From IMG/VR virus record IMGVR_UViG_3300046011_007348, positions 8,024-72,023 of that record: a stretch of DNA of 64,000 nucleotides. One strand, 5' to 3'. Of the stretch, positions 23,214-59,100 are shown piece after piece. Below the pieces are notes generated by a model. It searched no databases and was not told where the DNA came from. It saw nothing but the letters and a program-made list of their open reading frames with translations. The translations under genes and the position numbers were made by a program. Source of the DNA: a virus. Its lineage: Duplodnaviria > Caudoviricetes. Numbering within the stretch: the first letter of the stretch is position 1; each line of letters begins with the position of its first letter.

Positions 23214-23432
23214 ATGTCAAACGTAGATCACCCACAGCATTACACAGCAAGTTCAGTTGAATGCATTGATGCAATTGCAGCAGCTTTATCTCCGGAAGAG
23301 CTAAGAGGATTCATCAAAGGCAATGTCATCAAATACTTATGGAGAAGCGAACACAAGAATGGTAATGAAGATTTACAGAAAGCTTTATGGTACTTAAATT
23401 GGTATGTCAATAAAATCAAAAATCCATCATAG
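23214..23432 (+). CDS. DUF3310-family protein
   Basis: VDHPQHY...ECIDAI...GNVIKYLWR...KNG.EDLQKALWYL. Confidence 0.9.
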   Translation: MSNVDHPQHYTASSVECIDAIAAALSPEELRGFIKGNVIKYLWRSEHKNGNEDLQKALWYLNWYVNKIKNPS

Positions 23433-40203: not shown

Positions 40204-40931
40204 TTCCAAATTTATTAAGTTTGAATCCAGATTCATTTATAGAATTATATGAAATATATAAATACAGAGTGGAAGATATAAATAAAGATGAAGCTGCACA
40301 AAATCCTAACGTGCCATCAACAATGATTGAAACAATTAGGATTGGTAGTATAGCTATTGATGAAAACACACCATGGGTTGTCTTTGAAGGCAAAACTTAT
40401 TATGCAGTTGGATGCCAAGGAGAAGGATTTGATTTAATCGGACGTGGTACTATTCCTACTCCAACATTAACTGTATCTAACGTTGGTGGTATTTTAACTA
40501 AATGGCTAAAAGACAGTAGAGATCCAGCATACAGACTGGAAGGCACACACGTCAAAAGGCGCGTGACTCAAAAAAGATTTTTAGATGGACAAGTAGATGC
40601 TAATGCTGGGGTAAAAGAACTGCCAATACAAATTTATGTTATTGAACAGCTAGTAGAAGAGAACTATACTAACGCAAAATTCAGACTTGGATCTGCCTTT
40701 GACGTTGAGGGAATAACATTGCCAGCTAGAGTAATGGTGCGTAGCTGCACTTGGGTATATCGTAGTCCAGAATGCAGTTACGCTAATCCTGCAAAATTTA
40801 CAATAAATAATGAGCCAACCCAAAATGCAAGTGAAGATTTCTGTGCAAAAACTATTGCAGCTTGTGAAACAAGATTTGGTGCAGGCAGTATATTACCATT
40901 TGGTGGATTCCCAGGATTAAATACTTACTAA
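40200..40931 (+). CDS. Minor tail protein L-like
   Basis: FIELYE, PTPTLTVSN, CTWVYRSPECSY, CAKTIAAC..RFG..LPFGGFPG. Confidence 0.92.
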   Translation: MIPNLLSLNPDSFIELYEIYKYRVEDINKDEAAQNPNVPSTMIETIRIGSIAIDENTPWVVFEGKTYYAVGCQGEGFDLIGRGTIPTPTLTVSNVGGILTKWLKDSRDPAYRLEGTHVKRRVTQKRFLDGQVDANAGVKELPIQIYVIEQLVEENYTNAKFRLGSAFDVEGITLPARVMVRSCTWVYRSPECSYANPAKFTINNEPTQNASEDFCAKTIAACETRFGAGSILPFGGFPGLNTY

Positions 40932-41128
40932 ACCTCGGATTCGTTGCGTTTTAATTTCATGTATATCTTTATCTTGTTCCGTAGTTCTAGCTCCTGTATT
41001 AATCCACTAACAACTAATCTATTCACAATTGAACTGATAGATTCTTCTGTTTCTTGATGGATTGATTGTAAAACAGCAAAAACATCAGTTGATACAGACA
41101 CGGAAACTTGTTTCATATTACCTCTCAT
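40928..41128 (-). CDS. Ribbon-helix-helix (CopG-like) regulator
   Basis: KQVSVSVS strand followed by two helices (SISSIVNRLV). Confidence 0.65.
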   Translation of the reverse strand: MRGNMKQVSVSVSTDVFAVLQSIHQETEESISSIVNRLVVSGLIQELELRNKIKIYMKLKRNESEV

Positions 41129-41146
41129 TGCTTACTAAATTAACTA

Positions 41147-41195
41147 TACATTATGTATAATGTACATAGCAAAAAAGTCCGACTTTTGTCGGACT
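41147..41195. promoter_or_regulatory. Two palindromes in divergent regulator gap
   Basis: TACATTAT-GT-ATAATGTA (41147-41164); AGTCCGAC-TTTT-GTCGGACT (41176-41195). Confidence 0.55.
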
Positions 41196-41196
41196 A

Positions 41197-41493
41197 ATGG
41201 AGGTAACATACATGGAAATTATAACTAAATTTAAGCCTATCCCAGACAAATATTCCTCTTTGGATAGACTCATGTGTCCACTAGAATTTAAACAAAAGTG
41301 GAAATTAACGATAGACGAGATGTCTTGGGTGCTGCAAATTAGTCCGGATACTTTTAAATCTTGGGCTGTACCTGAGACAAGTGCCAAAAGCAGAAAAACA
41401 CCTTTAATTGCTTTTGTTGCTTGCAAAGCATTAGACACTCTTTGGGAGCAGCAAGGTATGCCCAACGTTAGAGTTTTGATGAATTTACATTAA
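41197..41493 (+). CDS. HTH-like regulator (start may be 41212)
   Basis: LTIDEMSWVLQISPDTFKSW. Confidence 0.6.
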   Translation: MEVTYMEIITKFKPIPDKYSSLDRLMCPLEFKQKWKLTIDEMSWVLQISPDTFKSWAVPETSAKSRKTPLIAFVACKALDTLWEQQGMPNVRVLMNLH

Positions 41494-41592
41494 AAACTAA
41501 TTTAATTACAAAAACTGTGTACTTTGTCCACGCTATTTGTGTACAGAGTACACTTGCTTTATATATACTTTATTCTTATAGTTTAAGCATAG

Positions 41593-41638
41593 TTCCAGAA
41601 ACATTCCAGAAATAGTTCGGAAGTAAGACGGAAGTAAG
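41593..41638 (+). repeat. Four 11-bp-phased CRGAA repeats upstream of FtsK operon
   Basis: Cores at 41596, 41607, 41618, 41629. Confidence 0.75.
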
Positions 41639-41646
41639 GAGGAAAA

Positions 41647-42021
41647 ATGGATACAGACATCTTGTATCCTGTTAAACACAAAAGACAGTATAGGAGGAAA
41701 ACTCAGTCATCGGTGGTGCTATCTGATTGCACCAGAGAAGCAATTGCACTTGAGCTGGAAGTATCTACTAGAACTGTTCAAGAGTTAATCAGAATTGCAT
41801 CAACGTATATTGATTTGTTTAATGAGTATACAGATGACAATTACAGATTAAATGGTTTGCCGATAGATTCAAAACAACAAGTTGAAGTGTTAAGGCAAAT
41901 TAGACAAGTTAGACAAAAGTACAGACACGTCAAAGACAAGTCCTTTATTAAGAAGGAGTATCAAAAAATCAACCAAAGAGTTAAGGAGGAACAAAATGGC
42001 AGTCAAGAAAGCAACAGTTAA
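41647..42021 (+). CDS. HTH DNA-binding protein
   Basis: TREAIALELEVSTRTVQELI; AGGAGG RBS. Confidence 0.7.
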   Translation: MDTDILYPVKHKRQYRRKTQSSVVLSDCTREAIALELEVSTRTVQELIRIASTYIDLFNEYTDDNYRLNGLPIDSKQQVEVLRQIRQVRQKYRHVKDKSFIKKEYQKINQRVKEEQNGSQESNS

Positions 42022-42598
42022 AGATGTCGCAGCATCAATTGGCTGGACAGTCAAAGAGTTGGTAACAAGACTAAATCAAGAGCCTGGCATTAATGTCGCT
42101 CCTAGTGAAGCTTTTCCGACTTTGTCAGAGGACAGCGAGTTGTGGAAGCAAATCCAAGCTGCTGCTCAAAAAAGTCAAGTTAGTCAAGAGCCAGTTAAGG
42201 AGTCTGTCGCTATTGGAGAAGGCGAGATTAGTCCATACCAAGCGCCAATAGAAACAGTTGAGACATTAGCTGAAGCTCAGAAAGTATTAGCAGAAGAGAC
42301 AACTGGCATTCAAGTAGAACAAGCTCGTATACTTGGCTCTGTTGCTGGCATTAATGAAACCATTACATATTTTACAGCACGCCAACAAGTCACTGAAGCA
42401 TTGCTTAGACATCATATTGAGCAACAAACTAATCTCACAGATAGTTTAATCGGAAAAGCCAAAGAATCTTCATTTGAACTGCACAAGCAGACAAGGAACA
42501 GCTTGTCAGGAGCCTATGAATTAAAAAAAACTCTAGAAGAGCAAAAAGCCAGGTTGAAAAACATAGTGACGCAAATGACACAATCATTTGGGATGTAA
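41996..42598 (+). CDS. N-terminal HTH-like + coiled-coil protein
   Basis: TVKDVAASIGWTVKELV; helical E/Q/A-rich tail; A8 slippery run at 42523-42530. Confidence 0.7.
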   Translation: MAVKKATVKDVAASIGWTVKELVTRLNQEPGINVAPSEAFPTLSEDSELWKQIQAAAQKSQVSQEPVKESVAIGEGEISPYQAPIETVETLAEAQKVLAEETTGIQVEQARILGSVAGINETITYFTARQQVTEALLRHHIEQQTNLTDSLIGKAKESSFELHKQTRNSLSGAYELKKTLEEQKARLKNIVTQMTQSFGM

Positions 42599-42663
42599 TC
42601 AGACTGGTTAATGAATCGACTTTAGCGCAAATAGAGTTAGCAATATCGATTGGGCAAATTGAG

Positions 42664-42894
42664 ATGCTTCAGCAAATTCTAAAAAGAAGAAAGGAGTTAA
42701 TTAAAATCATGATTGACACATTGTTAGGAGTATCAAGTGTAGCAGGAGTAGCGACTATAGCAAGTTATTTTGCTGTTGCCACTGCTGTAGTCAATCCAGT
42801 TGTATTAACGGCATTAGGTGCAGCTGCTTTTTTAAGTGGTGTCTATATGCAATTTTCATCATCTAATTCAATTCAAATTACCCGGAGAAAATAA
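42664..42894 (+). CDS. Small 2-TM membrane protein (own RBS at ATG 42709; frame open from 42520)
   Basis: Two hydrophobic helices; AAGGAG RBS. Confidence 0.7.
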   Translation: MLQQILKRRKELIKIMIDTLLGVSSVAGVATIASYFAVATAVVNPVVLTALGAAAFLSGVYMQFSSSNSIQITRRK

Positions 42895-42895
42895 C

Positions 42896-43153
42896 ATGTT
42901 TAACGGAAAAGAACAAATCACAAGTCGTGTAGTAACTCAGATTACTAATACTAAGTTGGAAAATGGTGGTACTTTGCATGACAAAATAGAAACGCATTAT
43001 TCACCAATTAATTCACACGTTGACAACGCGCTGTCCGGTGTCCTTGTGCCTTTATCGATTGCTGCTGGCTTGTGTGCATTTGTTGCAGTATCTAACTGGA
43101 CAGCACCATCACAGTGTCAAAGTCAGGCACAAGTTCAATCTGCTCATAAGTAA
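42896..43153 (+). CDS. Small single-TM protein
   Basis: GGAG RBS; VLVPLSIAAGLCAFVAV. Confidence 0.65.
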   Translation: MFNGKEQITSRVVTQITNTKLENGGTLHDKIETHYSPINSHVDNALSGVLVPLSIAAGLCAFVAVSNWTAPSQCQSQAQVQSAHK

Positions 43154-43161
43154 GGTGACAC

Positions 43162-43572
43162 ATGCTTAGCACATTGAAAGGATTTTTCTCTAACACAGGA
43201 GACAAATTAGAAAACATTTTGTATGGAGTCAATAAGCCAATTTTCCCATACGTTTACGAAGTAAGTGAGGAGGAAGTGAAGCAAATTACTGAAGACGCAA
43301 CTGCGACAGAACAAATGGCTGCAAGAGTAAAAACATATCTAAAAGCAGTGGAAAGAAAAACCAAAAGTGTTGAAGAAATGTTTAATGCAAACAATGCTTT
43401 TGAAAAGTCAATGATGGCAACTGCTGAAAGATTAAATGACAAGAACAAGATGATGTATGCCGCTCGAAAGGAATACAAAAAACAATTGCCTTTTAGCGTC
43501 AAAAGGTACTTGCACCCAGCAAGGATTGTAGGCGATTCTACAGCAAACATTATCAAAGGAATTTGTCAATGA
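43162..43572 (+). CDS. Coiled-coil hypothetical protein
   Basis: AAGG RBS; helical heptads. Confidence 0.65.
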   Translation: MLSTLKGFFSNTGDKLENILYGVNKPIFPYVYEVSEEEVKQITEDATATEQMAARVKTYLKAVERKTKSVEEMFNANNAFEKSMMATAERLNDKNKMMYAARKEYKKQLPFSVKRYLHPARIVGDSTANIIKGICQ

Positions 43573-43826
43573 TGGAAGACGAAAGAATGACAGATATTCA
43601 GAATTCAGCAAGGTGGATGTTAGGAGCCAATCAAATACTAATCGTCATAGCTTTTGGTGCTTTTACTGGCTATTTATCCCGCTATTATCCACCTTCTAGT
43701 TCTGTCACGATAACAGTAATTACGTTTGCATGTATTTGTGGATTTCTGTTTCCAGCTACAAGAAAAATACTACTTTTAGTTGGAATATTTTATGGACTAG
43801 GACTTGTCCTTAGTCATTTGAATTAA
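43563..43826 (+). CDS. Small 3-TM membrane protein
   Basis: Three hydrophobic segments. Confidence 0.7.
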   Translation: MSMMEDERMTDIQNSARWMLGANQILIVIAFGAFTGYLSRYYPPSSSVTITVITFACICGFLFPATRKILLLVGIFYGLGLVLSHLN

Positions 43827-43890
43827 TTGTTTGGGAGGTGCCAAGTGGATACCATTACTTGCCTCCTTATTCATTTTAAAGGGAGGTATT

Positions 43891-45723
43891 ATGTTCTTTT
43901 TTAAATCAAAAGCAAAGCCTAAAGTTGTACACAAGAAATTTGAATTAAGTCCAGTTGTGTTGTACAACTTAATTGGAGTAACAATTTTAGTTTTTACACC
44001 TGCAATGATTAGCTGGAAAAATGCTAAAGAGTTGCGAGTAGCAAGTAGTGCCGTAGCAGTAATGTACTCTATGGTATTGTTAAAATATGCCCAAAACAAT
44101 ATTGATGAAGCTGATAGACTTGCCATAGAAAAAGAGCATTACTTTACGGCTTATGCTAATGCTTCTGGGGATGTTTATTTAAATTCAGAACAACAAATCA
44201 AAAATGCTTTGCTGCCTCCTGCTTCTAGTCCAGAAGTAGACTTAGAAGTTCTGCATCCATTAGAAGATACACTCTTAAAATTAGGCATCAAAGCAACAAT
44301 AGATGGAGAGCCAATAGATTCTCCTACGTTTACTAGATTCAAGATAGTGCCTGACAAAGGAGTGCATTATCAAAAATTTAATAATTTGTCAGATACTCTA
44401 AAAGTTCATATGGGGTATGATACACCTCCACTGATTTCATGTCAAAGCAAGTATGTCTCGATTGATGTAGCAAAGACAGACTCAGAAAGACGTTTTTGTG
44501 AATATCAAGAATACTCAAACAATTTGAATTATTCTCTTGAGAAGTTCACTGTTCCTATTGGAGTTGACATCAACAACAATCTTGTTGAAGTGTCGTTATC
44601 AGATGCTAACTCCCCTCATTTATTGATTGCTGGAACTACTGGTAGTGGCAAGAGTGGTTGGTTAGTAGCTTGCATAACTAGTTTGCTGGATAGATTTCCT
44701 GCTGATAAATGCAGACTATTTTTGATTGATCCAAAGCTAGTTGAGTTTGATATTTTTGAAAAATACAAACAAGTTGAGTTGGTAACAAAACAAGAAGACG
44801 CTCTTACTTTGTTGCACAATTTACTTAACACAATGGAAAGTAGATATGAGCTATTCAAAAAACATAAAGCACGGGATTTATCTCAATACAATAGAGAAAA
44901 TCCTAAGAATATTATGCCACGAGTTGTGGTGTGTTTTGATGAATACGCAACATTCATGGTAGGAGACAGTAAAGATGATTTTAACGATTGTTTATCTCAA
45001 CTAGCACAGAGAGCGAGAAGTGCTGGAATACACCTTGTATTAGCTACTCAGCGTCCTGATGCGACAATTGTCACGCCTAGGATACGCTCTAACATACCTG
45101 CTCGCATTGCATTAAAGACTATCCAACACCAGGATAGTGCTATAATTTTAGGAGTAGAAGATGGCACTTTAAACTCCAAGAATTTGTGTGGTAAAGGTGA
45201 CTTAATTGCTAATTACAATGGCAAGCTAGAAAGACTGCAAGGATTGTATGTCAAAGATGTAGATTACACGTTATCAAATACTGAAATCAAGGAGTTAACA
45301 AATGTAGATTCACCTTACCAAAATGACGAAATTGCCTATAGCTATAGTGAAGCACAAGATAGCGAGAAAGGTGAAGTGTATACTCACTTCTCCAAAACAG
45401 CTCAAAAGGATAGTGTACAAGCATTTGAGTCTAAAAACAAATTTGTAACTAGCTTAGTGAAGCTAAAAATCGCTGCCTTAATGTCTGGGGATATAGACGA
45501 AACTGAGCCGTTATTTGATGATAGTTATGGGCTGTCATCAGAGCAGCAGCTTTTAGTGTTGAAGTTTTTTCTAGACAAAAACATAGGCAAAGAACGCACA
45601 ATTAAAGCTCTATGGGGAACAAGTTCTGGTGGTAAAAATCATCATAAATATCAAAAATCAAGTGCTATTTATGATGACATGATATCTAAAATAAAAGAAC
45701 TTGAATACTTAACACAAGTGTAA
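43891..45723 (+). CDS. FtsK/SpoIIIE-family DNA translocase with 2 N-terminal TM helices
   Basis: GGAGG RBS; FtsK-alpha-like region; PHLLIAGTTGSGKS, LIDPKLVE, MESRY, VVVCFDEYA, AQRARSAGIHLVLATQRP, GKGDL. Confidence 0.93.
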   Translation: MFFFKSKAKPKVVHKKFELSPVVLYNLIGVTILVFTPAMISWKNAKELRVASSAVAVMYSMVLLKYAQNNIDEADRLAIEKEHYFTAYANASGDVYLNSEQQIKNALLPPASSPEVDLEVLHPLEDTLLKLGIKATIDGEPIDSPTFTRFKIVPDKGVHYQKFNNLSDTLKVHMGYDTPPLISCQSKYVSIDVAKTDSERRFCEYQEYSNNLNYSLEKFTVPIGVDINNNLVEVSLSDANSPHLLIAGTTGSGKSGWLVACITSLLDRFPADKCRLFLIDPKLVEFDIFEKYKQVELVTKQEDALTLLHNLLNTMESRYELFKKHKARDLSQYNRENPKNIMPRVVVCFDEYATFMVGDSKDDFNDCLSQLAQRARSAGIHLVLATQRPDATIVTPRIRSNIPARIALKTIQHQDSAIILGVEDGTLNSKNLCGKGDLIANYNGKLERLQGLYVKDVDYTLSNTEIKELTNVDSPYQNDEIAYSYSEAQDSEKGEVYTHFSKTAQKDSVQAFESKNKFVTSLVKLKIAALMSGDIDETEPLFDDSYGLSSEQQLLVLKFFLDKNIGKERTIKALWGTSSGGKNHHKYQKSSAIYDDMISKIKELEYLTQV

Positions 45724-45737
45724 TATTAAATATTGTG

Positions 45738-45801
45738 TTAGTTCCGTTTTACTTCTGTTGTAGTTCTGCTTTACTGCTGAAGTATTACCGGAATTTAACC
45801 G
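45738..45801 (-). repeat. Six 11-bp-phased repeats downstream of FtsK, inverted relative to 41593-41638
   Basis: Plus-strand cores TTCCG/TTCTG/TTCTG/TGCTG/TACCG/AACCG at 45742, 45753, 45764, 45775, 45786, 45797. Confidence 0.7.
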
Positions 45802-45899
45802 GTATTTTGGTGTTAACACATTGCCAATACTGTAAGTAGCTGGGAACAGCAAACAGTCTTAATAGTTCACTCACGTCAAACAAATCCAGTAAGCAAATT

Positions 45900-46478
45900 A
45901 TGATTAAAAACGATAAGTGGATTCTAGAAGAATGTAAAAAAGGGATGATTCAACCATATGAAACACAACTTGTTAAATACAACAATGGCAAGCGAATTAG
46001 TTATGGATTATCTTCTTATGGTTATGATATTAGTTTGTCTGACACAGAATTCTGGGTGTTTAGAAATGATAACAATACTGTTGTCAACCCCAAGAATTTT
46101 ATTAGAACAAATCTAGAATCTGTGCCTTTGCAAAAAGATGAATATGGAGAGTTTTTTGTAATTCCAGCCCACTCTTATGGATTGGGAGTTGCACTAGAGA
46201 AAATTACAATGCCTGACAATGTAACTGCTGTTTGTGTTGGTAAAAGCACTTATGCCAGAGTTGGATTGATTGCTAACATCACTCCTGTTGAAGCTGGATG
46301 GAGTGGACATTTAACATTAGAATTTAGCAATTCTTCCGGTGCTGACTGCCGAATTTATGCAAATGAGGGAATAGCACAATTACTGTTTTTTGAAGGTGAG
46401 ACTTGCTCTACAAGCTATAGTCAAAGACAAGGCAAGTATCAAGATCAGCCTGAGAAAGTGGTATTCGCTAAAGTCTAA
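45900..46478 (+). CDS. dcd: dCTP deaminase
   Basis: ISYGLSSYGYD, GKSTYARVG..NITPVE, IYANEGIAQLLFF, GKYQDQ. Confidence 0.96.
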   Translation: MIKNDKWILEECKKGMIQPYETQLVKYNNGKRISYGLSSYGYDISLSDTEFWVFRNDNNTVVNPKNFIRTNLESVPLQKDEYGEFFVIPAHSYGLGVALEKITMPDNVTAVCVGKSTYARVGLIANITPVEAGWSGHLTLEFSNSSGADCRIYANEGIAQLLFFEGETCSTSYSQRQGKYQDQPEKVVFAKV

Positions 46479-47125
46479 GATTGTTGGATTACATTCTCTA
46501 TAAGAGCAGCAATCTCCGCTGCTTTTTTAACTTGTGGGCATTTAATAATATGGCAACATACTCTTTCTAATAACAAAAATCCAACATACTTGCCTTCAAT
46601 TAAGTAAAACATATAGCTATAAGTCTTCCTCGACTCTAACCATGTTTGGCATACCTTGCCATTTTTGACATTAGAAAACACATATTTATCACCAGATTCT
46701 AATAAAAAATTAACTTGCAATGATACGTAAGAATAAATACATTTATTGTCTAAAACTTGCATTTTTTTTGTTTTAGCACATACTTCTATCCAGGTGGAAA
46801 AGCTATCTGCAAATATGCCTTTATCAGTCCTCTTTGTCTGATCCAAAAAGAATAATGTAACTCTATTAAATCCTGCACTTATCAGCTCTTGTAAATATGA
46901 TTTAATGTATTCCTCCTCTTTAGTGGTAAAGGATGGTGTATTTAATGTGTTCATGGAATTTATTCTGTCATTTAATGTTTTTACACTTTTCTTAATCAAG
47001 TAAATTATCCATGCACTTATTAAAGAAAATAAGATAGGAAATGCGTCTATAATCAATTGAGACGCGACAGATGACACTAAAGATAAATCGTTATTTTGAG
47101 AAGGAACTTCTTTGTATTCAGCCAT
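46475..47125 (-). CDS. Single-TM protein with possible GAF-like domain (holin candidate)
   Basis: TM at aa ~24-44; FNRVTLFF...YVGFLLLE beta pattern. Confidence 0.45.
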   Translation of the reverse strand: MAEYKEVPSQNNDLSLVSSVASQLIIDAFPILFSLISAWIIYLIKKSVKTLNDRINSMNTLNTPSFTTKEEEYIKSYLQELISAGFNRVTLFFLDQTKRTDKGIFADSFSTWIEVCAKTKKMQVLDNKCIYSYVSLQVNFLLESGDKYVFSNVKNGKVCQTWLESRKTYSYMFYLIEGKYVGFLLLERVCCHIIKCPQVKKAAEIAALIENVIQQS

Positions 47126-47165: not shown

Positions 47166-50100
47166 CTATCTTTTAAGTATTCCACCCTGTCTTTGTTGAC
47201 GTTGTATTTCTACTATTACTGCTGTTTTAATAGCACTCTGCATCGCATTTGGATCTATGGACGGTGATTTGTCACCATCTTGACTTTCAATCGTTATAGG
47301 CACATTTACAGTTGTATTTGTTGTTGGTTGATTAATATTTCCTAGTCCAGGAGATGGGGGAATAACTCCACCACTTGCAAAGTTCATTATGTTTCTTACT
47401 TTTAATTCGCTATTGCTTACGTTGCCTCCCATGGCATAGTTCATTACGGATTCAATATTGTTGTTTTTAATTGCTTTATCTAATCCCATCGACTGGAACT
47501 TAGCATTGTCAGCAACACTCAACACTCTTTCTCCTGGCGTTAATACTGCTACTACTGGTGTTATTCCTCCATTTGCAGCTTTCTCTCTGACAATTGCTTC
47601 ATTTAATGATTGAATTATGCCTCCACCAGCATAGTTCTTGATTACTCCTCCTTTGTATTGGCTGGATACTTCGCCTCCATCGTTGGCACTTGGGACTTCG
47701 CCGCCGCTATTTCCTCCAAATATTCCTCCAATTGATTTGAATAATGAATCAAGAATCCCTCCTGCTCCTACTAATGATTGCATTAATGATTTGATAGCTA
47801 TGTTGATAAGTCCGTTTAGCATGTTTTTAGCTAGGTTGTTTAAGACATCGTCTAGTTTTTGGACACCCATTATTACGTCTGTAAGCCCAGCTGATAAATC
47901 ATTGATCAAAGAATCTCTAACCATTTGACGGATTGTCGAAACTACATCCTTAGCTGCGTTTTTAGACTCTTCTAGTTTTGCTTTGTATTTTTCTTCAATC
48001 TCCTTAGTTCTTTCTTCATATTCCTTGTCATCTATATCCCCCCCCTCTTTTTCTTTCTTTGCTTTATCTAGTTCGTCTTGTTTCTCTTTTTTTAAACGCT
48101 CTTCATCCATCCTCCGTTGTTCTGCATTTATTTGAAACTGATTGCCACCTTTGTCTCTATATATATTTAATCTTGTTTGAGCCGTTTCTTGTTTCATGGC
48201 AATGACAGTTTGCTTAATATCTTTTGTTAAATCTGTCATTAACTTGGTTTGCATTTCTTGGTTTTTCCGTACAAGATCTGTTCTTTGTTCCTCATTCAAC
48301 AAAACGCTTGCATTAATTTGAGCCTCACGCAAAGCAGTTGCTTTCTCGATTTCATACCGTCTTGATGCAAATTCACTTTTAGAAAAATTATAGTCAACAG
48401 AGTTCATTAAATCTCTTCTTTCAAACCTCCTGTCTACTTCTGTTTTAGTTTCGTTAGCTTTATCAATTTCAAGCTGAGATTGGTTTTGTATTCTTTTTAT
48501 TCTAGTAATTTCTCTATATTTTTCTATTCTTGCCTCTGCGTCTACTGAGGTTAATAGTCCTTTTGCTACTAACTCCTTTGTGTTTAATTCATATTGTGAT
48601 AAAGCATCTTCAATTTGAAGTTTTCTCTCTTCAAATTGCAACTCTGGCACTGAACGGATATTTAATAACTGCATTTGGTTAAATGGCATAAGTCCTTCAG
48701 CGAAAGAATTTTGTATTTGCGAATCTTGTGTTACAGGGAAATAAGTATTGCCTTCCAATTTGTATTCATCCATACCACCAAATCCAAATTTGCTTCTAGG
48801 CTTCATTAGTTCCGTTAAATTATTAAATCTTGGTTCATTGGGGTTTGCTGTTGGCTTTTTCAGCTCTTCAATTAACCGTAAACCCTTCAATTCATCTACT
48901 AATTTAGCATTCTCCTTAATACTTTGATTAAACTTTGGTATATCTGAATGCAATTTATCAACATCTATGTTATATTGCTTAATGTCTGAGTCAGTCATCT
49001 GGATTGCTTTAGGATATATTTCCTGTAGCCTTAAGACTTCTTTGTCCAATCTTTGTCCTTCCGTCTTTTGCTTTTGAAAGATTTCTTCTAGGTATCCCTT
49101 TTGTTGTTCTGGTGTCGTAAAATCAATTGTCCCTACTCGTTTGATACTAAACTTTGGATCTACTTGTTCTTGGAATTTTATTTTCCCCCCAGAATACTCT
49201 CCTATCTCTCTACCCTTTTGACTTATATCTAATTCAGCTTGTCTTAAAACATTATCCGAATCTCTTATTTTAGATCTATTCTCATACTCTCTTCTAAGCC
49301 TAGACATTGCTTTAGTTAATTTAATCCTTTCTTCAATTTCTTTCTTTTGAACGTCTATCGACTTCAAGGTAGTATCTAAAGTTGCTATATCCACTTTGAA
49401 TCGAGAGGCTAATCGTTGTTCGTCTTTGTTAAGGCGATCTAGATATTTCTCTCTTTGTTTTACATCTGTGATTTGCTCAAGCCCTTTCCTGAGTGGGTTA
49501 AACAAAGCTAACGTATCAGTTAGTTTACCATCGGTTCCTTTTACAAAGGATTGTCTAAGAGAATTTAATCTCTCTTGGATATCTTGTCTTGTATCATTTA
49601 ACTTATTAAGAGTGTCGGTTAACTTTATGCTTTCGGGTGTTAGTGGATCGGGTAATTTATCAGGAGAATATTCGTTAAGTATGTCAGAAAACGATCTTAC
49701 TAAACTATTAGTGGAATCCCTAGACTCTCTGATTGTTTTTTTAGTATTTTTAAAGAAATTATCAAGATTACGAATAACTGATGCTTCGTTTTGTTTTCTT
49801 AAAGCTTCAGCACGCTTTTTGTTTGCTTCATCTTGTTGTTTAAGAATCTCTTCCCTTTGTTTTTGAGAATCTGCGATAGCACCAGTGTTTACGCCAGCAG
49901 ATGGAGAAGTAGAGCCAGTATTAGCAGCGCCAGTATTGGCAGTCTCAGGATTATAGCTTCTAGCTCTCTGGAAAGTTTTCATGCTATCGCTATCTCCTAC
50001 AAATCGCCAGTGCCATGGTTCATAATCTATACCTTGACGATTATTCTGAGGAAAAGATAATTCAAAGCCAAAACGAGCAGCGTTAGATTGTAACCATGAA

Positions 50101-53100
50101 AATGCTTTTGTTTTTTCAAATGTGGAATTGAGATTAGTTCCTGGTGCTGCTTTATCACCAATATCGACAGCATATCCTGTATGATGCTCACTATAACCCG
50201 GAGGAGCGCTAACTTTTGCTCTTTGTTCTGGAGTTTGATTGCGTTGGGCAGCTACTCCAAAAAACAATTGTCGTTGCTGTTGAATGGAACGAAAACCAGA
50301 AATAGGAACTAGAACTACACCTTCCTCTTTAGCTCTTCGTGCCATGTATTCAAATTTTTCAGCAGCAATTTGCCGTAGTTTAATTTTCCCGTCAGTTGTG
50401 ATAGGACTTAGCTCTTTCAGAGGTGCTTCGTTATAAGCTAAATGCCCATACTTGCTTTCATTGTTACTTGATGTGGTGTTTGACGCACTCCCTGCTCTAG
50501 CAGAAGCTGATGGCACAACAGCAGATATTGGCGTTTGCCCAGTTATAAAAGGTGTAGGATCTATTGCCCGTCCATTAACCCTTATCTCAAAATGCAAATG
50601 AGGGCCGGTGCCTACTCCTGTATTGCCTAATTTTCCTATTTGTTGTCCAGCTTGAACAACGTCCCCAACCCGAACCAACATTTCAGATAAGTGTGCATAT
50701 CGCGTTTCAAGTTTTTTATTGTCTGGTGTTGTATGTTCTATGTAAATTACCTTTCCATAGGCACCCTGAGTTTTAGCAATTTTTACTATGCCAGGTAAGC
50801 TAGAAACAATAGGTTCCCCAATTTGTCCAGCAAAATCCCTTCCTGCATGCCTTCTACCAGGACGAGGATCTCCAAAGTGCCCCCCGGGTACAGTCCTTCC
50901 TCTGTTTGGGTGCGGATGCACAAAACTACTAACGCTAGATGGTGGGTTTTGTGATGCACCGAAAAAACTAAATAAAGAAGAAAACACGCCTTGAACACCG
51001 TTAGAGTTAGATGAATTACTAGATGTCGAAGAGTTGTTAGTAGGAGTTGATGGAGCCGGTGTTGCATTAGAATAAGGATCTATTTTTATGCCCGCAGATC
51101 TCTCTAATAAATCAACAGTTTGTTGCAAGCTAACATTCATATTAGAAACAGATTCATTAGCTTTTACCATATTTTCATTTAATTTTTCGGTGTTTTTATT
51201 AGCCTCCCCCGACTCTTTAACAGTTTGTTGAGTCTGTTGAGTTACTTTTGCCGCTGATGCTCTAACTGCATTTATTAAAGCCTCTAGTTCTTTGCTTGAT
51301 TGTGTAAAAGCTTGTTTCATATCAGACTCAATATCTTCTGTGACTCCAATAATGTCTTTACCAGAAGGCAATGTCCTTATAAGTTCTCTTGCTTCTATTT
51401 GGCTATCTTTAATTCTATTTTTAAAATCTAAGCTAGTTCTTTCAGTATCTATTTGACTTAAAGCGGTTTGGTTTAATTGTTCTATGATAGATACCAACCC
51501 ATCTATATATCTAGTAAATTCAGTGTCTCCTAATCCGGTTAACGCTTCATTAATTTTGGTTTTAAAGTTAGCGTTTTGTATTTCTTGGTTAGCTTTTTTA
51601 ATCTCTAATCGCCCTTGATCTATCTCTTTAGTAACAGAACGAACGTAATCATCTACCTGTTTTTGTTGTTGTCTTAAAGACTCTTTTAAATCATATCTGC
51701 TTTTAGCTAATGAACTGCGAGCGGTAGCAAGGCTCGTGGCATCATCTTGAGTTTGTTTTCTTAATTCAGTTATTTTATCTTTAGCTTCAGTATTAAGATT
51801 GCTATCAGGTATTGTACTGAGTAAATCCAAAGCTGCCTTTCTCATTGTGAATAAACGAGACAACCCAGACACTCTTTGTTCTTGTGATATTATCCCAGAT
51901 CTCCGTGTTGCATAATCAACATCCCCAGGATTAGCACCGGAGCTATATATCCTTTCCTCTCTAAGTGCAGTAGATCTATCAATGTTTGCAGAAAACCTGT
52001 CGTAAGCAGCTTGAAATCTATTTAATGCAGATAAAGTATCTTTGTAAACTTGTTCTAAAGGATTAACAGGGACACTTTTTTCAATGATTTGCTTTGCTTC
52101 CTGTGCAAAATCTTTCATCTCTTTAGCTATTTGCAGATAAGCACCTCTCACGGGTGCTGGAACAGTTTTTGCCGCATCCTCTAGTTTTTTCGCTTCTTCC
52201 AGTAAAACATTAGCCGAATTAGCGTTGGCTTCTACATCCTTAGCCAACTCTTTTCTTAATGCAAGTCTCTGAACTATTTGTTTAGATAAATCCGCAGCCC
52301 TCTTTTTTGACTCTGGGGTATTTTGTTGAGTTGCTTTTGATTTTTCAACAGATAAACCTAATACTTCTATGTCAATTTGTTTTAATCTATCAGCAACGTC
52401 TTTTACCCTAGCTTTATATTTGTTTTGAGTTTCCTTGGTTAACCCTAAGTTACCAAATTCTTTTTTGCTACTTTGTAAAACAGAATCAAAGTAATCTAAA
52501 TTATCAATTACCTGTTTAACTCCAAGTGTAATATCGTAATCAGTATCAGATACAAGTCCTTTTATATCATATTTTTTAAGAATTGCTTTTTGTTTAGGAG
52601 AGATTTTATCAGTTGCATATTCTCCCCCGAATCCAGTATTAATATTTTTATCAAGGCCACGCCTCCTGTTTTCCCCTTCTCTCTGCGCTACAATCTCTTC
52701 GTATTTGTTGTACTCCATTAACCCCAAACTGTTTTTATCTATTTCACCTCTTAATGCTTTATTTACATTTTTGACAAAATCGTCTGTAGTATATCCTTCT
52801 TCTTTCATCCCAAAAACATAAAAAATATCAAGCTGAAGCCCTTTTGAGGGAATAGAATCAGCAACGTTTTTATATCCTTTAGCCAACTCCTTGCTGCTTT
52901 TTTGGTTAACTTTAGAAGCTTCATCAACTTTTGCTAATGAATTACTAATACTTCCCAAAGCTCCATTAACAGATCTAGCCATTTCGCTAATGCTTTTCTG
53001 CATGGGGTTAGAAAAATCACTTCTAGCTAAAAACATAAAGGCTAGTGCTATACCAGCTTCTATCCCAATTTTTGCTAAGCTTTTTAATGATTTCATTAAA

Positions 53101-56100
53101 CCTGCAAGCATTTGAGACAAAGCTTGTCCCCATGCTGCTCTAGCGCTACTTGCAAGCATTCCATCGGAGCTAAATAAAAGAGTAAATGCTTTTATAATTC
53201 CAACAGATGTAATTGTTTTCCCCAGTGAAGTAAGTGATGCTCCAATTGCGTTTAAGCCTCCAACAACACCTTGAGTCCATGCAAAATTTAGAGCAGCTTT
53301 TAGCCCTTTAAAACCATTTCCTACAAGTTGGAATAATCCAACAAAAGAAGCCCCAATTCCTTGCCAAAATCCAGCCTTAAAGCCAGCTGTTATATTTGCC
53401 ATAAAACCTGCAAACGCTGCTTTTGTTGCGCTAATTCCATCTATAAAACCACCAAATATTGCAGATGCCCCGATTGTGGCTGGAAGCTGCTTAAAAAATC
53501 CAGTAAAAGAAGCCCATAGCCCTTTCATCTGAGTAGCTATTGTTGTTTTGGCAGAATAAAAAGCATATGCTATTTCATCTTGTAATCTAGTTCCTATGGG
53601 TGAACGTTGTTTAGACTCGACTTGAGCAGATAAGTCAAAAGTGTTTGTGAATAAAGACTGTATTCCTTTTGGAGAAATTGCTTCATTTTTCATCCCTACT
53701 AAAGACACTCTTATCCCATTAAGTCCCTGTAATAACCCCTTAAACATTGGCATCCCAAAATGTTTTGTAAGGGTAATTAATTGCTCAAACATTAAAACTA
53801 AAGCAAGCAGTTCAATTACACCAGAAGGAATAACTTTAGTTATATTGCCGATTCCATCAATAAAAGACTTAAAGGGGTTTTCACTTGGCTTTCCTACAAT
53901 AGTATCAAACAACCCTTTCCCAGTAATTTTTCGTTTTACACTATCCAAACTACTTAAAAACCATAGAATTCCATTACTTACGCCTTCATACATGTTTTGC
54001 ATTAATGTCTTCTGAGCGCCTAAAAAATCATCTAAAACATCAGCTAAAATGCCTAAGAAAAATGGCCCTAACGCACCCATAAGCGCGGCAATACCCGCCG
54101 TTAACAAACCAGATATATTCATTAAAAAAGTTTTTACTGGGTTCATTTTTAATAAGAAAACTAACCCAACTCCAAGAGTGGCAGTTACACCAATAACAAA
54201 GGAGCTAAAAATTTTGATTATATCGTCTAGGATTGCATTTATTGCGGACGCTATGTTTGAAAAGATATCAACTACAAACGAAAATAATCCACCAAAAGCA
54301 TTGACTAATTTAATAGACATTTCCATCCCAATGTTTTGCAATCTAGTTAGTGAGATAGAAAACCCTTCAGCTCCTTTTGCCGCCCCGCTATAGTCTATTT
54401 TTAATTGTTTTGCAACTTTGGGTAATACTTCTTCTGCTAGCAAACTACCTGCTGAGGACATTTCTATTAATTGGGGTATAGAAATGTCTAGTGCCTTTGC
54501 AAATATACCCATAGCGGGAGGGAATCTTTCACCCAGCTGCTGTCTTAATTCTTCCATGGAAATTTTGCCCTTGGACAGCATTTGAGTATAAGCCATAAAT
54601 ACTAACTCAGCGTCTTGCCCAGATATTCCTAGCGCGCCTAGTGATGCACTAATACCTTCAAATAAATCCCTAGCGCCTTCACCTTCTAATTTTGTTCCTC
54701 TAGCTGCAATAGCAATTTGGCTGTAAGCCTGAGTAGCTGCTTTAGCTGGAACGTTTAAGGCTTTGGCTGTGTTCATTGCATAATTAAGCTCTGCTTTCCC
54801 GCCTTCTTTTGAGCCACCCAAAAAGTTTAATCGCCTTTGTAATGGCTCTAACTCCAGCATGGCCTTAACAAGAGACTGTATTTGATTTCTAACCATAAAT
54901 ACAGCCCCACCAATAGCTCCAAATAACGGAAGCAAAGGTGTTACCAATGGTAATAAAGTTGTGGCAAAAGTTGTGATAGGAGCAAATACACTAGCGGCAG
55001 AAACAATAAATGAAAGCATATTCTTTTGAATATCCTCCCTTTCGTCTGGCGCAAAGTTTTTCATTTTATCTCGCTTGAATTGAGCGCCAATTGCATTCCA
55101 GAAATCTTTAAAAACGTTTTTAGGTACGACTATACCTCTTTTCCATTGAGTAACTATCTGATCCCAAATTTCTTTTGGGTTTTCAGCTCCTAATGCTTTT
55201 CTAACTTCTCTTTTAACGTCAGAACCAACATTTTTCCAGTTGGCAACAGCTTCATTAAACCCTTTAATTATGGCTTTACCAATATTTAACCCTTCCTGAG
55301 TAAATGCTTTGTGAAAAGCAGATATACCCAAAAGCAGAGCTGTTATTGCCATTTTTACCTGAGCTGTGTCTATTTTTATCCCCATAGTTGCGGCAACGTT
55401 TTGAAGCCCACTCGTCTTAAATAACTGTTGGGCTGTACGTGCTGTCATATTAACAGCGCCTTCAACATTCCCAGACGCATAAGCATTGGCTATCCTAACA
55501 GCTCTACCACCCAATCCATTGGTAGCAGAAAGCATTCCAGAATCAACAATTTTATTTATTAAAAAGTCTCTAATACTGTTAACAATCTTGCTATTTTTTT
55601 CTAAAATCCCTCTCAATAAATTACTATTCCCAGGGTTTTTAATAGTAAAACTATCAAACAGTGTTCTTAAAACTTGTCTAGCTAAGTCTTTAGCACCTGT
55701 TCCTTCTATACCAATAGAACTTATGTTTGTTTTAATTTGATTTTGAAGAGTTTGGGTTAAATTTTCCCTAGGGACATTTTCCCCAAGTGCTGGTAATTTA
55801 TCGCCATACACAGAACTAGCAAAACCAGCTACTTTTCGTCCAGCTTGCGCTAAAAAGGGTATGCTAGACAACGTTTTAAAAAATGGGTTTTCGCTACCTA
55901 TAAACAATCTAAATAGCTTGCTTATTCCAAAAGCTTGTCCCCCTTTATCTCCCATTTTATCTTCCCTGCCTAAATCAATTCCTGTAACAGACTTGATGAC
56001 AGAAGGCAACAACCCTCCTGGCTGGAAGATGTTGTTATTTTTTAAAAGATTAGAAGCAAACTGCCCTATCTTTCCTGCTTTATCACCTATCAGCCCTGGC

Positions 56101-59100
56101 AATAATGGCGCTAGAAGCGGCAGTAAATTAGTAAGATTAGCGCTACCACCAGTTACCATTTCAAACAGTTTAGGAGCCATTTTGAACAAACCCAGGCTAG
56201 AAAGTGCATTCATACGCCCTGTGTCCATAAAGTTTTTCTCAATCATGTTTTGGAGGCTCTTCCCAACAGCTTTACGAAGATAGCCTCCTAGAGAAAAAAT
56301 GCCCACTCCTTGTCCAGACGTGCTTGAAAACCCGTCTACAATACTGTCAAATAGTTGCTTAAATACAGATTGCTTGCTAGTTGCAACAGCACTTCCAGAT
56401 TCTTTGACTATAGAGCTTACAGTCCCAAACCCAACGTTAACACTTTGGGCTTTTTTCCGAGAAAATTTATACGCATTTAAAATACTTTGTTGTATTTCTT
56501 TATCAGTCATTCTACCGGACGATACATCAGCAACAAATTTTTGTAATTTTTTGTCTATAAGATTTTTCTGTGCAGCATAAAGACTCTTTTGGGATTGAGA
56601 TATCCCAGGAGTATTCATTAACTCATCTATCCGTTTTTTATATTCTTCTGATATTTTATGGCTTGCTAATAATAGAGTAGAAACCTTCTTAGATGAGTTT
56701 CTTATAAGAGGTAAAATATTCTGGTATCTTAATTCAGGAGCATTTTTATCGTAATTCATTAAAACATCAAAATCTGACTTCGCTGCCTTTGCTATTTGAT
56801 TTTGTTGTTTTTTACTAAATCCTAAATAGTGCATTGTATCTTTATTAGGCTTCATAACTTTGGATCTTAAATAATCCATTGCTTCTGCCTCGCTACCAAA
56901 ATTTCCCTGCTTATAAGACTTAGCAAAGTCTTTCAAGTCTGCATCTATTTTCTTTTTAGATCTTGCAAGCATGCCCTTTGAATATTTAGTAAGAGCTGGA
57001 TTATTCATTTCTTTATCAACAAACTTTTTATATTCTTGAGATATTCTATGAAATGAATAAACTAATGATGCTGTAGCTCCATCCTCAAAACCTTTTCCAA
57101 AGTCAAGCCCCACCCCTTTCATTATCAAGGAGGGTGATGATATGCGCAAAACTTTTTTGACACTTTTAACTAACGAAAAGAATGACTCTGAGATAACTTT
57201 GCTTTTAGAACCAAAATTACTAAACCCATTCAAAAATCCTTCTACTAAATTAAAGCCTATTTTCAAGAAAGTTTTTGGTAGTCCTTGAGGGATAATGCCT
57301 GATATTCCTTTTAATAAATTTCCTCCTAATTTACTAAAAATACCTTGAGGCATTATAGACAATATTCCTTTAGGTATAACTTGCCCTATTTTAGAAAAAA
57401 TATTTTTAAATCCAGTAGGTAAAACCGCTAAAAACTGGTTAGAAATCATTGACAATAAAACATTCCCAACTCCTTTCAAGTCAAAGTTTTTTAACATTGA
57501 AAACATGTCATTGTCTAATTGTTCTTCAACACCATTATTTAGTCGCTCCTCATCTTGTAGTGGCTTACTTCTGCTTTTTTGCCTAAACCTACTTTTAGAC
57601 TTTTGTTTGGCTTTATCGCCATACATATAATTAAGAAAGTCTGGATGTGTAAAAACAGTTTCTTCATTTATTGGCTTGTTTTCTTTTTCTAACTGCTTAT
57701 AAATTTTGGAGTAAAGCCTTTTCAACTCTCTTTCTTTTTTAAGCGGTACTTGTCTTTGCTGTACATAGCTTTGCCCTCCAATTATGTCGTGTAAGCTATC
57801 ACTTACTTTTATTCCACCACTAGGATTAATGCTTATCAAGCCAGACGTTCTTCTTTTAAATTCTTTGTCAGACATTGCACTAAGATTAGACTTCGTGACA
57901 TTAACGTGCCTGCCATCGCTTTCCAATAATACCTCTTTCCTGGCAATAGCTTCTGTCTCTATTTGTTTTCTGGTTTTACCTAGATTTGTATGCCTTGTGT
58001 ACCCGCCCAAGTCATCTTTTTGGAGATTTAATGATTTTGCAATAGCAGGGAATTTATCTAATAAAGAGATTAATTTAGAATTTATACTAGCAGGCAATGG
58101 AATGGTAACACCTTCCGGAAAGCTCCTTTTTTGTTTTGACTTTGCACCTGCCCAATCATAAACATCTACTGCATTTATCCCAGTTTTTGTTTTAACTACA
58201 CCAAAACCCCCAAGAGTTAGTTGCAGCGATCTAAGATCTTTCAAAAGTAAATCAAACTCAAGTTTTTTACTTGAATTAGCAAATTTAGATTCACTGTCAA
58301 ACGCGCCTAAGTAACCATAGCCAGACTGTTGCTTACCTTTATCAGCTAGAAAAACACTAACAGCATCTATTATAGGGGATAAAGAGTTTTTATCATTAAA
58401 CTTAATTACATCTGTATTTCCCCTATAAAATTTACCAAGATGAGACATTGGGATATTCTGCTCTACAGAAGTAGGTTTCCTGCCTAAAGCCGGCAATACC
58501 GTTGACAATATTTTGCTGTTTGCAATTAGAAAACTACCTATATCTTGAGATAATTCATTAGAACCTTTTGAGCCTTTTCTTGAGTTTTTAAAAACTTGTT
58601 TTACCTTGGTTGCATAGGCTTTATTCTTGTCATCAACAGCATTCTCTATTAAGCTGTCCAAAGACTCCGCGCCTTGCTCTGTTGTGTCTTTAACGGTAGA
58701 GATTACTTCGTCAGCAGCTTTTTTTACATTAATTTTATTTGTAACTAAACCAATAGCCAAACCCGCAGCTATTGCAGCACCAATACTAATAAAAACTTTA
58801 GAAGGTGAAGATATGCCTAATATTTTTTTGAATGCAACTATATATTTTTTAGCTTCTTCTTCCCCAAGTGTTTTAAATGCAGATGAGTTTGTCTGAATTC
58901 CTTCCTGATTTGCTTTAGCTATCAAATCAGCTTCTTTTTTTACTTTTAAATATGATTTACTAACTTCTTGTTTAACACTTTTTTCGCCTGCGCTAATCGG
59001 TGATTTAGCTTGCGCTATTTCATTTATTTGTTGTGGAGTTGCATTTAAGCTTTTAGCTTCCGCCATTAGCTTTTCTACTGCTTTTCTACTGTCACTACTT

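Follow-up and report, generated by a model that had tools for sequence, protein, structure and literature searches.

Why should an operon in a tailed phage begin and end with short repeats that recur once per turn of the DNA helix and that point in opposite directions at the two ends? The question arises from a stretch of 64 kb (the window), positions 8,024 to 72,023 of the 72,023-base virus record IMGVR_UViG_3300046011_007348 in IMG/VR (CheckV completeness 52%). Here a set of tightly packed plus-strand genes (41647–45723) starts with a gene for a small helix-turn-helix (HTH) protein, g1, and ends with a gene for an FtsK-like ATPase. One array of 11-bp units lies in the leader of g1, and an inverted array follows the FtsK stop codon. 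An earlier note on this DNA had taken the two for helically phased binding sites of a polymerizing protein, acting as a centromere, as a loading site resembling the clt loci of Streptomyces plasmids, or as a looping operator. The phased arrays are real; as cis-elements they belong to a known type, and the phage module around them is undescribed. The reading we favor, to which we give a probability of about 0.5, is that they are DNA sites of the iteron type, bound by a protein that the phage itself encodes (probably g1), and act mainly as an operator.

The upstream array occupies 41593–41646 on the plus strand, with units at 41596, 41607, 41618, and 41629, the first two having the core CAGAA and the last two CGGAA. 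A degenerate fifth unit, at 41640, falls in the Shine-Dalgarno region; the Shine-Dalgarno sequence itself, AAGGAGG at 41636–41642, is a continuation of the last unit and is followed, after 4 nt, by the ATG at 41647. The downstream array (45736–45779, minus strand) consists of four inverted 11-bp units and begins 13 nt past the FtsK stop codon. On the plus strand its cores appear in reverse complement, as TTCCG (45742) and TTCTG (45753 and 45764). Units at 45775, 45786, and 45797, which are weaker, carry the pattern on to about 45812, and all six start with CRG on the minus strand. The segment 41618–41637 is identical to the reverse complement of 45738–45757 at 17 of 20 positions. On these points the earlier note was accurate throughout: the CRGAA cores lie exactly 11 bp apart at every position it gave for either end, its count of matching positions holds, and the upstream array does abut the first ribosome-binding site, into which the last unit runs.

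Several comparisons confirm that the arrays are far beyond chance and that they are related to one another in sequence. Three phased CRGAA cores, with at most one mismatch, give five overlapping matches in the 64 kb, all of them within the two arrays, when 0.02 would be expected; none of 100 shuffled sequences contained five or more. A motif-free sweep of the 64 kb for self-identity at a lag of 11 ranks the arrays first and second (0.76 and 0.73; next site, 0.61; mean 0.27, standard deviation (sd) 0.08). The same two lead when a longer sweep window is used, and none of the other lags between 5 and 20 has a top value above that of lag 11. A matrix was built from nothing but the four upstream units and run, as three phased units, along both strands of the 72-kb record; its top site outside the training site is the downstream array, with a score of 19.3 (next, 14.2; background −29.1, sd 9.2). 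The complementary match between the arrays reaches 24 of 31 positions, equaled in none of 500 shuffles of the downstream spacer, and the pair is the longest among 173 inverted pairs in 41000–46500. Uniqueness is limited to phased clusters: the scan of the record found no third cluster, and single units are common and scattered, with 157 above threshold versus about 78 in shuffles.

Does the leader array accompany this operon elsewhere? We compared periodicity at lag 11 across 12 sources in six lineages, with stretches of 8–64 kb. Two of the lineages were reached through members of the g1 family, locus L012 via P0006 and loci L025–L028 via P0009; locus searches with the family members P0007 and P0008 gave no related loci. 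Word-based homologue searches returned near-identical proteins only (three for g1 and one for the FtsK tail). Three loci with FtsK-like proteins of 24–30% identity (L022–L024) and a metagenome locus (L020, 30%) with another gene context were excluded from all comparisons. Ranked by self-identity at lag 11, the g1 leader falls within the first three sites of its locus in 8 of the 12 sources, which stand for four of the six lineages. It ranks first in the window, in L005, L009, L025, and L026, is co-top in L019, and comes second in L028 and third in L012. Conservation of the leader array is, like the phasing, a direct observation.

What recurs is a spacing and a core rather than one fixed sequence. 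In L012, where g1 is 37–43% identical, units at 6961, 6972, and 6983 have the cores C-GAA, CGGAA, and CAGAA and run into the Shine-Dalgarno sequence as they do in the window, with lag 12 scoring nearly equal to lag 11. In the clade of Cylindrospermopsis raciborskii virus CrV-01T (CrV; g1 31–33% identical), CRGCA cores 11 bp apart directly follow the terminator of the upstream Cro-like gene. One subclade of it has two to three further, different 11-bp units adjoining the ATG, and these account for the top ranks of L005 and L009 and the co-top rank of L019. In L025–L028, where g1 is about 30% identical, two units with CRGAC cores lie 11 bp apart after a terminator, about 110 nt before g1. The cores are CRGA-like across lineages, namely CRGAA in the window and L012, CRGCA in CrV, and CRGAC in L025–L028, with a shared A/G wobble at position 2. 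A register around TAAGAC common to the lineages was considered and dropped: its test word, TAARACNRGA, fails to match the window's own units. Words of 11–12 nt identical to the window array occur in the leaders of L007, L008, L018, and L010, and one with a single different base occurs in the CrV subclade. The exact 12-mer in the leader of L007, whose proteins are 30–40% identical, was equaled in 4 of 2000 shuffles, and the exact 11-mer in L010 in 34 of 2000.

At closer range, eight loci encode FtsK proteins 97–99% identical to that of the window; three cover the leader and seven the downstream array. The upstream array is unchanged in those three, which is weak evidence given only 5–6 differences over the whole 600-nt region, and it is without substitutions in DNA run X6. 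The expectation in the earlier note that arrays would stand beside homologous operons thus held in part. At the upstream end, a phased CRGA-core array is found in the leaders of four of six lineages. At the downstream end, the array is found only in near-identical relatives, and the idea of a design at both ends as a general feature does not survive, as the CrV-like clade has a plain terminator after FtsK.

We interpret these observations as follows. Iterons, with one recognition unit per helical turn, would let a sequence-specific protein bind in several copies lined up along the same face of the duplex. The binder would be encoded by the adjacent regulatory cassette, which comprises a divergent gene for a protein resembling the ribbon-helix-helix (RHH) family, the Cro-like gene, and g1; our first choice is g1, whose start codon the array abuts. 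Occupancy of the array would mask the DNA between the probable point of transcription initiation and the ribosome-binding site and would thereby shut off or time the operon of membrane proteins and FtsK-like ATPase, an autoregulation like that of ParR at parC and of KfrA at its operator. In the lineage of the window only, a second, inverted set of sites would have arisen past the FtsK stop, within the terminator hairpin, where it could provide a second anchor, for looping or as a boundary.

The exact one-turn period in two oppositely oriented arrays argues that duplex DNA is what is recognized, by a single protein present in several copies along one face of the helix. The upstream array has a probable start site before it and the ribosome-binding site of the putative binder's own gene after it, a position that argues for autoregulation, presumably by repression. 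Because the unit sequence differs between phage lineages, a phage-encoded reader seems more probable than a conserved host factor. As to which protein this is, loci L025–L028 are informative. They retain g1, the Cro-like and RHH-like neighbors, the phased units, and analogous small proteins, but their operon ends in a different gene, for a 648-aa membrane ATPase with sub-threshold matches to HerA and PD-(D/E)XK, no FtsK match, and another C-terminus. The leader array therefore goes with the regulatory cassette and not with the FtsK tail. Together with the lack of a 3′ array where the FtsK tail is conserved, this leads us to infer a ranking of a cassette protein, with g1 first, above the FtsK tail as the reader, and it disfavors the FtsK C-terminus, which the earlier note had named as a candidate. 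Of that note's overall proposal, helical phasing of protein sites fits the one-turn spacing, the uniqueness, and the recurrence; a polymerizing protein, a centromere, a clt function, and looping are unsupported.

The first-choice binder, g1 (41647–42021, plus strand), is a 124-aa HTH protein with a helical C-terminal part. Its family is rare: a search of 1.84 billion proteins at E ≤ 0.001 yields 13 representatives. Its HTH matches are generic and sub-threshold: HTH_23 in 6 of 12 members, a DeoR N-terminus at E = 0.0058, GerE at E = 0.017, and Pfam MerR_1 in 3 of 12 members, with a best E of 0.0042, under the cut-off. An AlphaFold2 (AF2) model (predicted local distance difference test score (pLDDT) 66) aligns over 46–85 residues with MerR-type regulators, TnrA, RacA, and pSK1 Par at Z scores of 4.4–6.1, and its Foldseek E-values are at least 1. 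In L025 (8004–8393) the g1 homologue has an in-frame insertion of KVKI repeats near its N-terminus, and an overlapping frame has a matching QDQS repeat.

A number of points weigh against our interpretation. The fold matches of g1 are under the level at which they count as trustworthy, and the RHH-like protein, the Cro-like protein, and the second operon protein, g2, are further candidate binders that cannot be told apart from it. The operator role is an inference that leans on a predicted promoter, and the array is probably transcribed (a contig from an RNA library starts at 41624), which leaves room for a role in RNA. There is no clear 11-bp periodicity in the leaders of two of the six lineages (L007/L008/L018 and L010) or in locus L027, where the leader site lies outside the top five lag-11 sites. 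The exact-word test was not significant against the leaders of L012 or L009 (equaled in 1177 and 1825 of 2000 shuffles, respectively), and a relaxed phased pattern gave one match in the complete CrV genome, at the leader, when reversed-pattern controls also gave one each. Finally, the downstream array has an independent explanation as the stem of a terminator.

Three other identities for the repeats were considered and rejected. Host Pho-box, HLR1, or NtcA sites are out of keeping with the units, which misfit those consensus sequences (compared by eye) and vary between phage lineages. A promoter of the extracytoplasmic function (ECF) type for a phage sigma factor would need a −10 element at the right distance, and by eye none matched. 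Transposon ends were set aside because the arrays do not mark where divergence sets in and the operon lacks a transposase.

The surroundings of the upstream array bear on how an operator there might work. Between the Cro-like gene and the array (41516–41553) are three GTGTAC half-sites. Two of them form a perfect 6-bp dyad at 41539–41553 (plus strand; GTGTAC, a 3-nt spacer, GTACAC), which is listed as terminator-like, and the third is at about 41517. The dyad may terminate the Cro-like gene weakly or may be an operator in its own right; CrV-like and L025-type loci have a stronger terminator hairpin at its position. The corresponding place in L012 (about 6855–6892) contains two GTATAC palindromes, a possible separate operator of the Cro-like or RHH-like protein. 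A candidate promoter was recognized by eye at 41554–41582 on the plus strand (TTGCTT, 17 nt, TATAGT), with a predicted start near 41589, just 5′ of the array; a promoter scan instead gives 41540–41569 (TGTACA, 18 nt, TATACT; 9 of 12 matches). Under either prediction the array would probably lie in the transcribed leader. RNA-library contigs from three runs in two studies fall on parts of the operon, the leftmost covering 41624–41774; none falls on 41100–41600 or past 45429, a gap that carries no weight, and the contigs do not define transcript ends. They are compatible with expression of the operon, with carry-over of DNA possible.

The two remaining candidate binders of the cassette are encoded just upstream. 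The Cro/C1-like gene (41197–41493, plus strand; 98 aa) ends just before the array region. A Pfam search gave no match for the window copy, its positional homologue in CrV is annotated with a Cro/C1-type domain, and the L012 copy is 50% identical over 40 aa. The RHH-like gene (40928–41128, minus strand; 66 aa) is divergent from the operon and matches Pfam RHH_7 at E = 0.002, below the curated cut-off; its positional homologue in CrV is gp045, and its L012 homologue is 42% identical.

At the other end of the operon, the downstream array doubles as the 5′ arm of a significant terminator-type hairpin, which the earlier note had overlooked. The long, imperfect dyad (45728–45807, plus strand) has 31 pairs and is followed by a U-run. 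Its left arm is the reverse array, and in its right arm are forward units in degenerate form (45777, 45789, and 45800). As RNA, the 89 nt after the FtsK stop fold with −25.2 kcal/mol (z = −4.96), a stability that no shuffle out of 200 attains. The right arm can alternatively form a short terminator-like hairpin (45786–45810, plus strand), made up of a site at 45786–45804 and a T-run. The segment 45724–45798 is unchanged in all seven close relatives that cover it, and the adjoining spacer, 45813–45899, has about 13 variable columns and two indels. All 31 pairs of the long stem are retained in three distinct sequences, with only two substitutions among eight sequences. Both are one-sided and keep the pairing (U·G to U-A in seven relatives, G-C to G·U in one), and one change, G45801A in seven of seven relatives, creates a mismatch in the short stem and improves the long hairpin. 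These changes are weak evidence that favors the long fold over the short stem. With a stable predicted hairpin and a U-run at the predicted end of a transcription unit, the downstream element has the features of an intrinsic terminator. In the CrV-like clade, the 3′ side of FtsK has an ordinary terminator with an 11-bp stem, preceded by at most one forward CGGAA and without an inverted array; in L012 the contig stops short of the operon's 3′ end, and no other contig was recovered for that end. The layout with two arrays is, in the sequences at hand, known only from the window's own lineage. Two details of related terminators may be recorded here. Between CrV and Cr-LKS4 (L005 and L006, 6098–6130), the stems after FtsK are identical and the loop, with its inner stem, is inverted, a small hairpin-loop inversion. 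In L025 (13030–13070), the post-operon stem CTTCCTG/CAGGAAG recalls the CRGAAG core of the window, which may be coincidence.

Could both elements then act as RNA, the upstream one as an unstructured, purine-rich translational element or a site for an RNA-binding protein and the downstream one as a long terminator or stabilizer, perhaps with pairing between the 5′ and 3′ parts of the mRNA? The strong 3′ fold and the substitutions that keep the long stem paired are consistent with this, as is the placement of the upstream array in the transcript by both promoter candidates and the presence of RNA-library contigs on the operon, carry-over of DNA being possible. A duplex between the leader and the 3′ element would have an energy of −45.3 kcal/mol, in the tail of the distribution, compared with a mean of −21.7 (sd 6.0) for windows of the genome. 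Nevertheless, unrelated windows match that energy (−45.3, −44.5, and −44.2 among 3598, the leader's own complement aside), and the leader alone has no significant fold (z = −1.29; 21 of 200 shuffles as good). Moreover, an 11-nt period equals one turn of DNA and has no rationale in single-stranded RNA, an RNA-binding protein would not read complementary units, the distance from array to start codon varies by lineage from abutting to about 110 nt, and there was no Rfam match at E ≤ 1. An RNA mechanism accounts for the 3′ hairpin and not for the phasing, and as an explanation of both arrays we consider it decidedly unlikely.

The restriction of the downstream element to one lineage, along with the degeneracy of its units, which is greater in the right arm, could also mean that it is a relic, either a decayed inverted duplication of the leader or, with its upstream counterpart, one of the old terminal repeats of a cassette that was once mobile. 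This seems very improbable. The phase is exact over all units, and 45724–45798 is unchanged in seven relatives while the next spacer varies. Further, the operon has no transposase by Pfam or PHROGs, and divergence between the window and L012 starts to the left of the array, at the RHH-like and Cro-like genes, so that the arrays are not the borders of the cassette.

The proteins of the operon raise a different possibility, namely that the repeats let a membrane pump capture phage DNA. The last gene (43831–45723, plus strand) encodes a 630-aa FtsK-like ATPase with a hydrophobic N-terminus, a single motor domain, and a conserved C-terminal domain of about 150 aa that contains a motif conserved among homologues. 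The motor matches Pfam FtsK_SpoIIIE at 1.9e-33, phrog_1358 at 7e-72, and the FtsK motor of PDB entry 2iuu at 1e-40 over aa 133–476; the hydrophobicity of the N-terminal segments is judged from the translated sequence alone. The C-terminal domain has an AF2 pLDDT of 53, no fold match at E ≤ 0.001, and no PDB match past aa 476, and the ESM Atlas gave nothing usable. Within the coding region (44717–44780) is a tandem repeat of 34 bp, 1.9 copies with 80% matches (Tandem Repeats Finder score 86), whose period is not a multiple of three.

Between g1 and the ATPase lie five plus-strand genes. The second gene of the operon, g2 (41996–42598; 200 aa), has an N-terminal helix motif resembling IF2_N (Pfam E = 0.017, sub-threshold) followed by a predicted helical region, and is weakly conserved in L007 and L012. 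Three genes encode small hydrophobic proteins: g3 (42664–42894; 76 aa), with 38–51% identity in CrV-like loci and L012; g4 (42836–43153), which starts at GTG 42836 or ATG 42896 and whose matches, in a tblastn comparison that also took in L007–L011, are confined to the close relative L002; and g6 (43563–43826; 87 aa), conserved at 41–63%. The remaining gene, g5 (43162–43572), encodes a helical protein of 136 aa, conserved at 27–45%, with no family match in Pfam or PHROGs. In CrV and Cr-LKS4 the annotated order is tail L, a small minus-strand gene, a Cro/C1-type gene, and seven genes ending in FtsK, and tblastn recovered the same operon in L007–L011. The operon of g1, small coiled-coil and membrane proteins, and a membrane FtsK-like ATPase is conserved.

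The arrays might be a clt- or centromere-like site, read by the C-terminal domain of the pump or by g1 as an adaptor, from which phage DNA is translocated directionally. Such a site could serve to segregate an episomal genome at septation or to move phage DNA across septa, as TraB/TraA reads clt. A membrane-anchored, single-motor FtsK/SpoIIIE ATPase with a conserved extra C-terminal domain is what this mechanism calls for; several small hydrophobic or helical proteins are co-encoded, in a layout resembling the tra/spd regions described in PMC4447253; and in the window the inverted array and dyad begin 13 nt past the stop codon of the pump gene, as clt lies at the 3′ end of traA according to PMC3583192. 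Yet the array at the 3′ end of the gene is absent from the CrV-like clade, although the FtsK C-terminal domain is conserved there. The conserved array is instead the one in the g1 leader, which persists in L025–L028 with a different ATPase C-terminus. The poorly modeled C-terminal domain (pLDDT 53) has no fold match. Among the operon proteins there is also no actin-like or ParA family match in Pfam or PHROGs, and no ParA/ParM-type partner was found in the operon or in 20 other open reading frames scanned against PHROGs, with the remaining reading frames of the window outside that scan. For the window's lineage the analogy of layout is real; a clt function is not supported by the comparative data, and we regard it as unlikely. 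More specifically, the operon could be a phage counterpart of the Streptomyces TraB/clt/Spd system, in which the arrays would tag the genome, g1 or the pump C-terminus would read them, and the motor with the small membrane proteins would pump double-stranded DNA across septa; this seems improbable. Were it true, such pumping would spread infection or lysogeny along a cyanobacterial filament without virions, or would rescue an episomal genome from closing septa.

The window is a fragment of a lake cyanophage. By the FtsK-like protein, its closest cultured relatives are CrV and Cylindrospermopsis phage Cr-LKS4, each with 40% identity over 90% of the query. Because these infect Cylindrospermopsis, and the DNA runs that contain the stretch are lake-water and freshwater metagenomes, the host would be a freshwater, probably filamentous, cyanobacterium. 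The window encodes a DnaB-like helicase, an Erf-like annealing protein, a sliding clamp, and a large terminase; virion and tail proteins, a helicase, a J-like tail tip protein, and a minor tail protein L are also present. A gene at 23416–24375 (minus strand) encodes a phage sigma factor with Sigma70_r2 (3e-17), Sigma70_r4, and a C-terminal InsA-type zinc ribbon (phrog_351 at 3e-40), and phage-specific promoters may accordingly exist in the genome. Another, at 47166–60527 (minus strand), encodes a tape-measure protein (TMP_3) of 4453 aa with Peptidase_M23 and VanY D-Ala-D-Ala carboxypeptidase domains. Tape-measure length scales with tail length, and 4453 aa would imply an exceptionally long tail. 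At least one relative with the module seems to be integrated in a host, as the 67.5-kb IMG/VR record of L012 is classed as a provirus; its g1 and tail L genes are interrupted by frame breaks, due perhaps to misassembly or perhaps to decay.

What do these arrays mean more broadly? FtsK/SpoIIIE-like proteins are widespread in phages, with 375 phage records matching the FtsK-like protein at E ≤ 1e-5, each at less than 60% identity, and are usually listed as accessory genes without a mechanism (e.g. PMC8597652). The cyanophage papers that mention FtsK, among those listed, describe no such arrays as far as titles and the openings of abstracts show, and supplementary annotations may differ; a search for Cylindrospermopsis, cyanophage, and FtsK together found no paper. 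The analysis defines a conserved cyanophage module in which a phased iteron array goes with three small putative DNA-binding proteins, with small membrane proteins, and with a membrane pump for DNA. It also provides experimental handles on the role of such pumps in phages of bloom-forming filamentous cyanobacteria: a site of 50 bp, four candidates for the binder, and two relatives, CrV and Cr-LKS4, that can be cultured on Cylindrospermopsis. As an operator and nothing more, the array would be a neat regulatory site of an ordinary kind. As a loading site for the pump, it would extend translocation of double-stranded DNA of the TraB/clt type to phages and cyanobacteria.

Among known systems, the downstream element resembles an intrinsic terminator, with a GC-containing hairpin and a U-run directly after the last gene. 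It differs in that its 31-pair stem is made of phased units that match the operon's own leader, a feature absent from ordinary and CrV-like terminators.

The Streptomyces TraB/TraA systems (pSVH1, pWTY27, pIJ101, and pJV1) share with the window a membrane FtsK-like translocase accompanied by small membrane or helical proteins and a small regulator (PMC3583192 and PMC4447253). In pWTY27, according to PMC3583192, clt comprises the last 16 bp of traA and a further 159 bp. It contains two inverted repeats besides four direct ones, and its binder, TraA, is a 688-aa protein with two transmembrane segments; the clt loci of pIJ101 and pJV1 likewise combine direct and inverted repeats. Short direct repeats with an imperfect inverted repeat at or just past the 3′ end of the translocase gene are also what the window and seven close relatives have, but the CrV-like loci do not. 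There are also differences. The clt units are 5–9 bp and GC-rich, without stated one-turn phasing; clt is read by a C-terminal winged HTH domain of the translocase, whereas the FtsK-like C-terminus of the window has no fold match; the window's conserved array is in the g1 leader instead of at the pump gene; and the comparison is of a tailed phage with plasmids and actinomycete integrative and conjugative elements.

A second group, the KfrA-type and MerR-like DNA binders with a winged HTH and a coiled coil or dimerizing helix (KfrA, RacA, and pSK1 Par), differs from g1 in having no sequence relationship to it and only low structural scores; g1 has only 124 aa, and the period is 11 rather than 9 bp. 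The likeness is in the small size and the N-terminal HTH with a helical tail, RacA and the pSK1 Par domain being among the best, although weak, structural matches of g1. KfrA of RA3 autoregulates through an operator of five 9-bp direct repeats, in both orientations, and its binding is needed for plasmid maintenance (PMC7783346).

The closest precedent for the spacing is the ParMRC system of plasmid R1, in which ParR is an RHH protein and ParM an actin-like motor. The first gene of the window operon is instead HTH-like and its NTPase is membrane FtsK-like, while the RHH-like gene is divergent, outside the operon, and sub-threshold. In addition, the clusters in the window are 4.1 kb apart, inverted, and at the two ends of the operon, not flanking the promoter. 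In R1 parC, according to PMC2241845, 11-bp direct iterons serve as combined operator and centromere and form two clusters in the same direction, 39 bp apart, that flank the promoter; ParR binding to them is cooperative, with one dimer on each iteron, and brings about repression as well as assembly of a higher-order complex. The likeness that we draw on lies in the 11-bp units, gathered in two clusters by the start of an operon.

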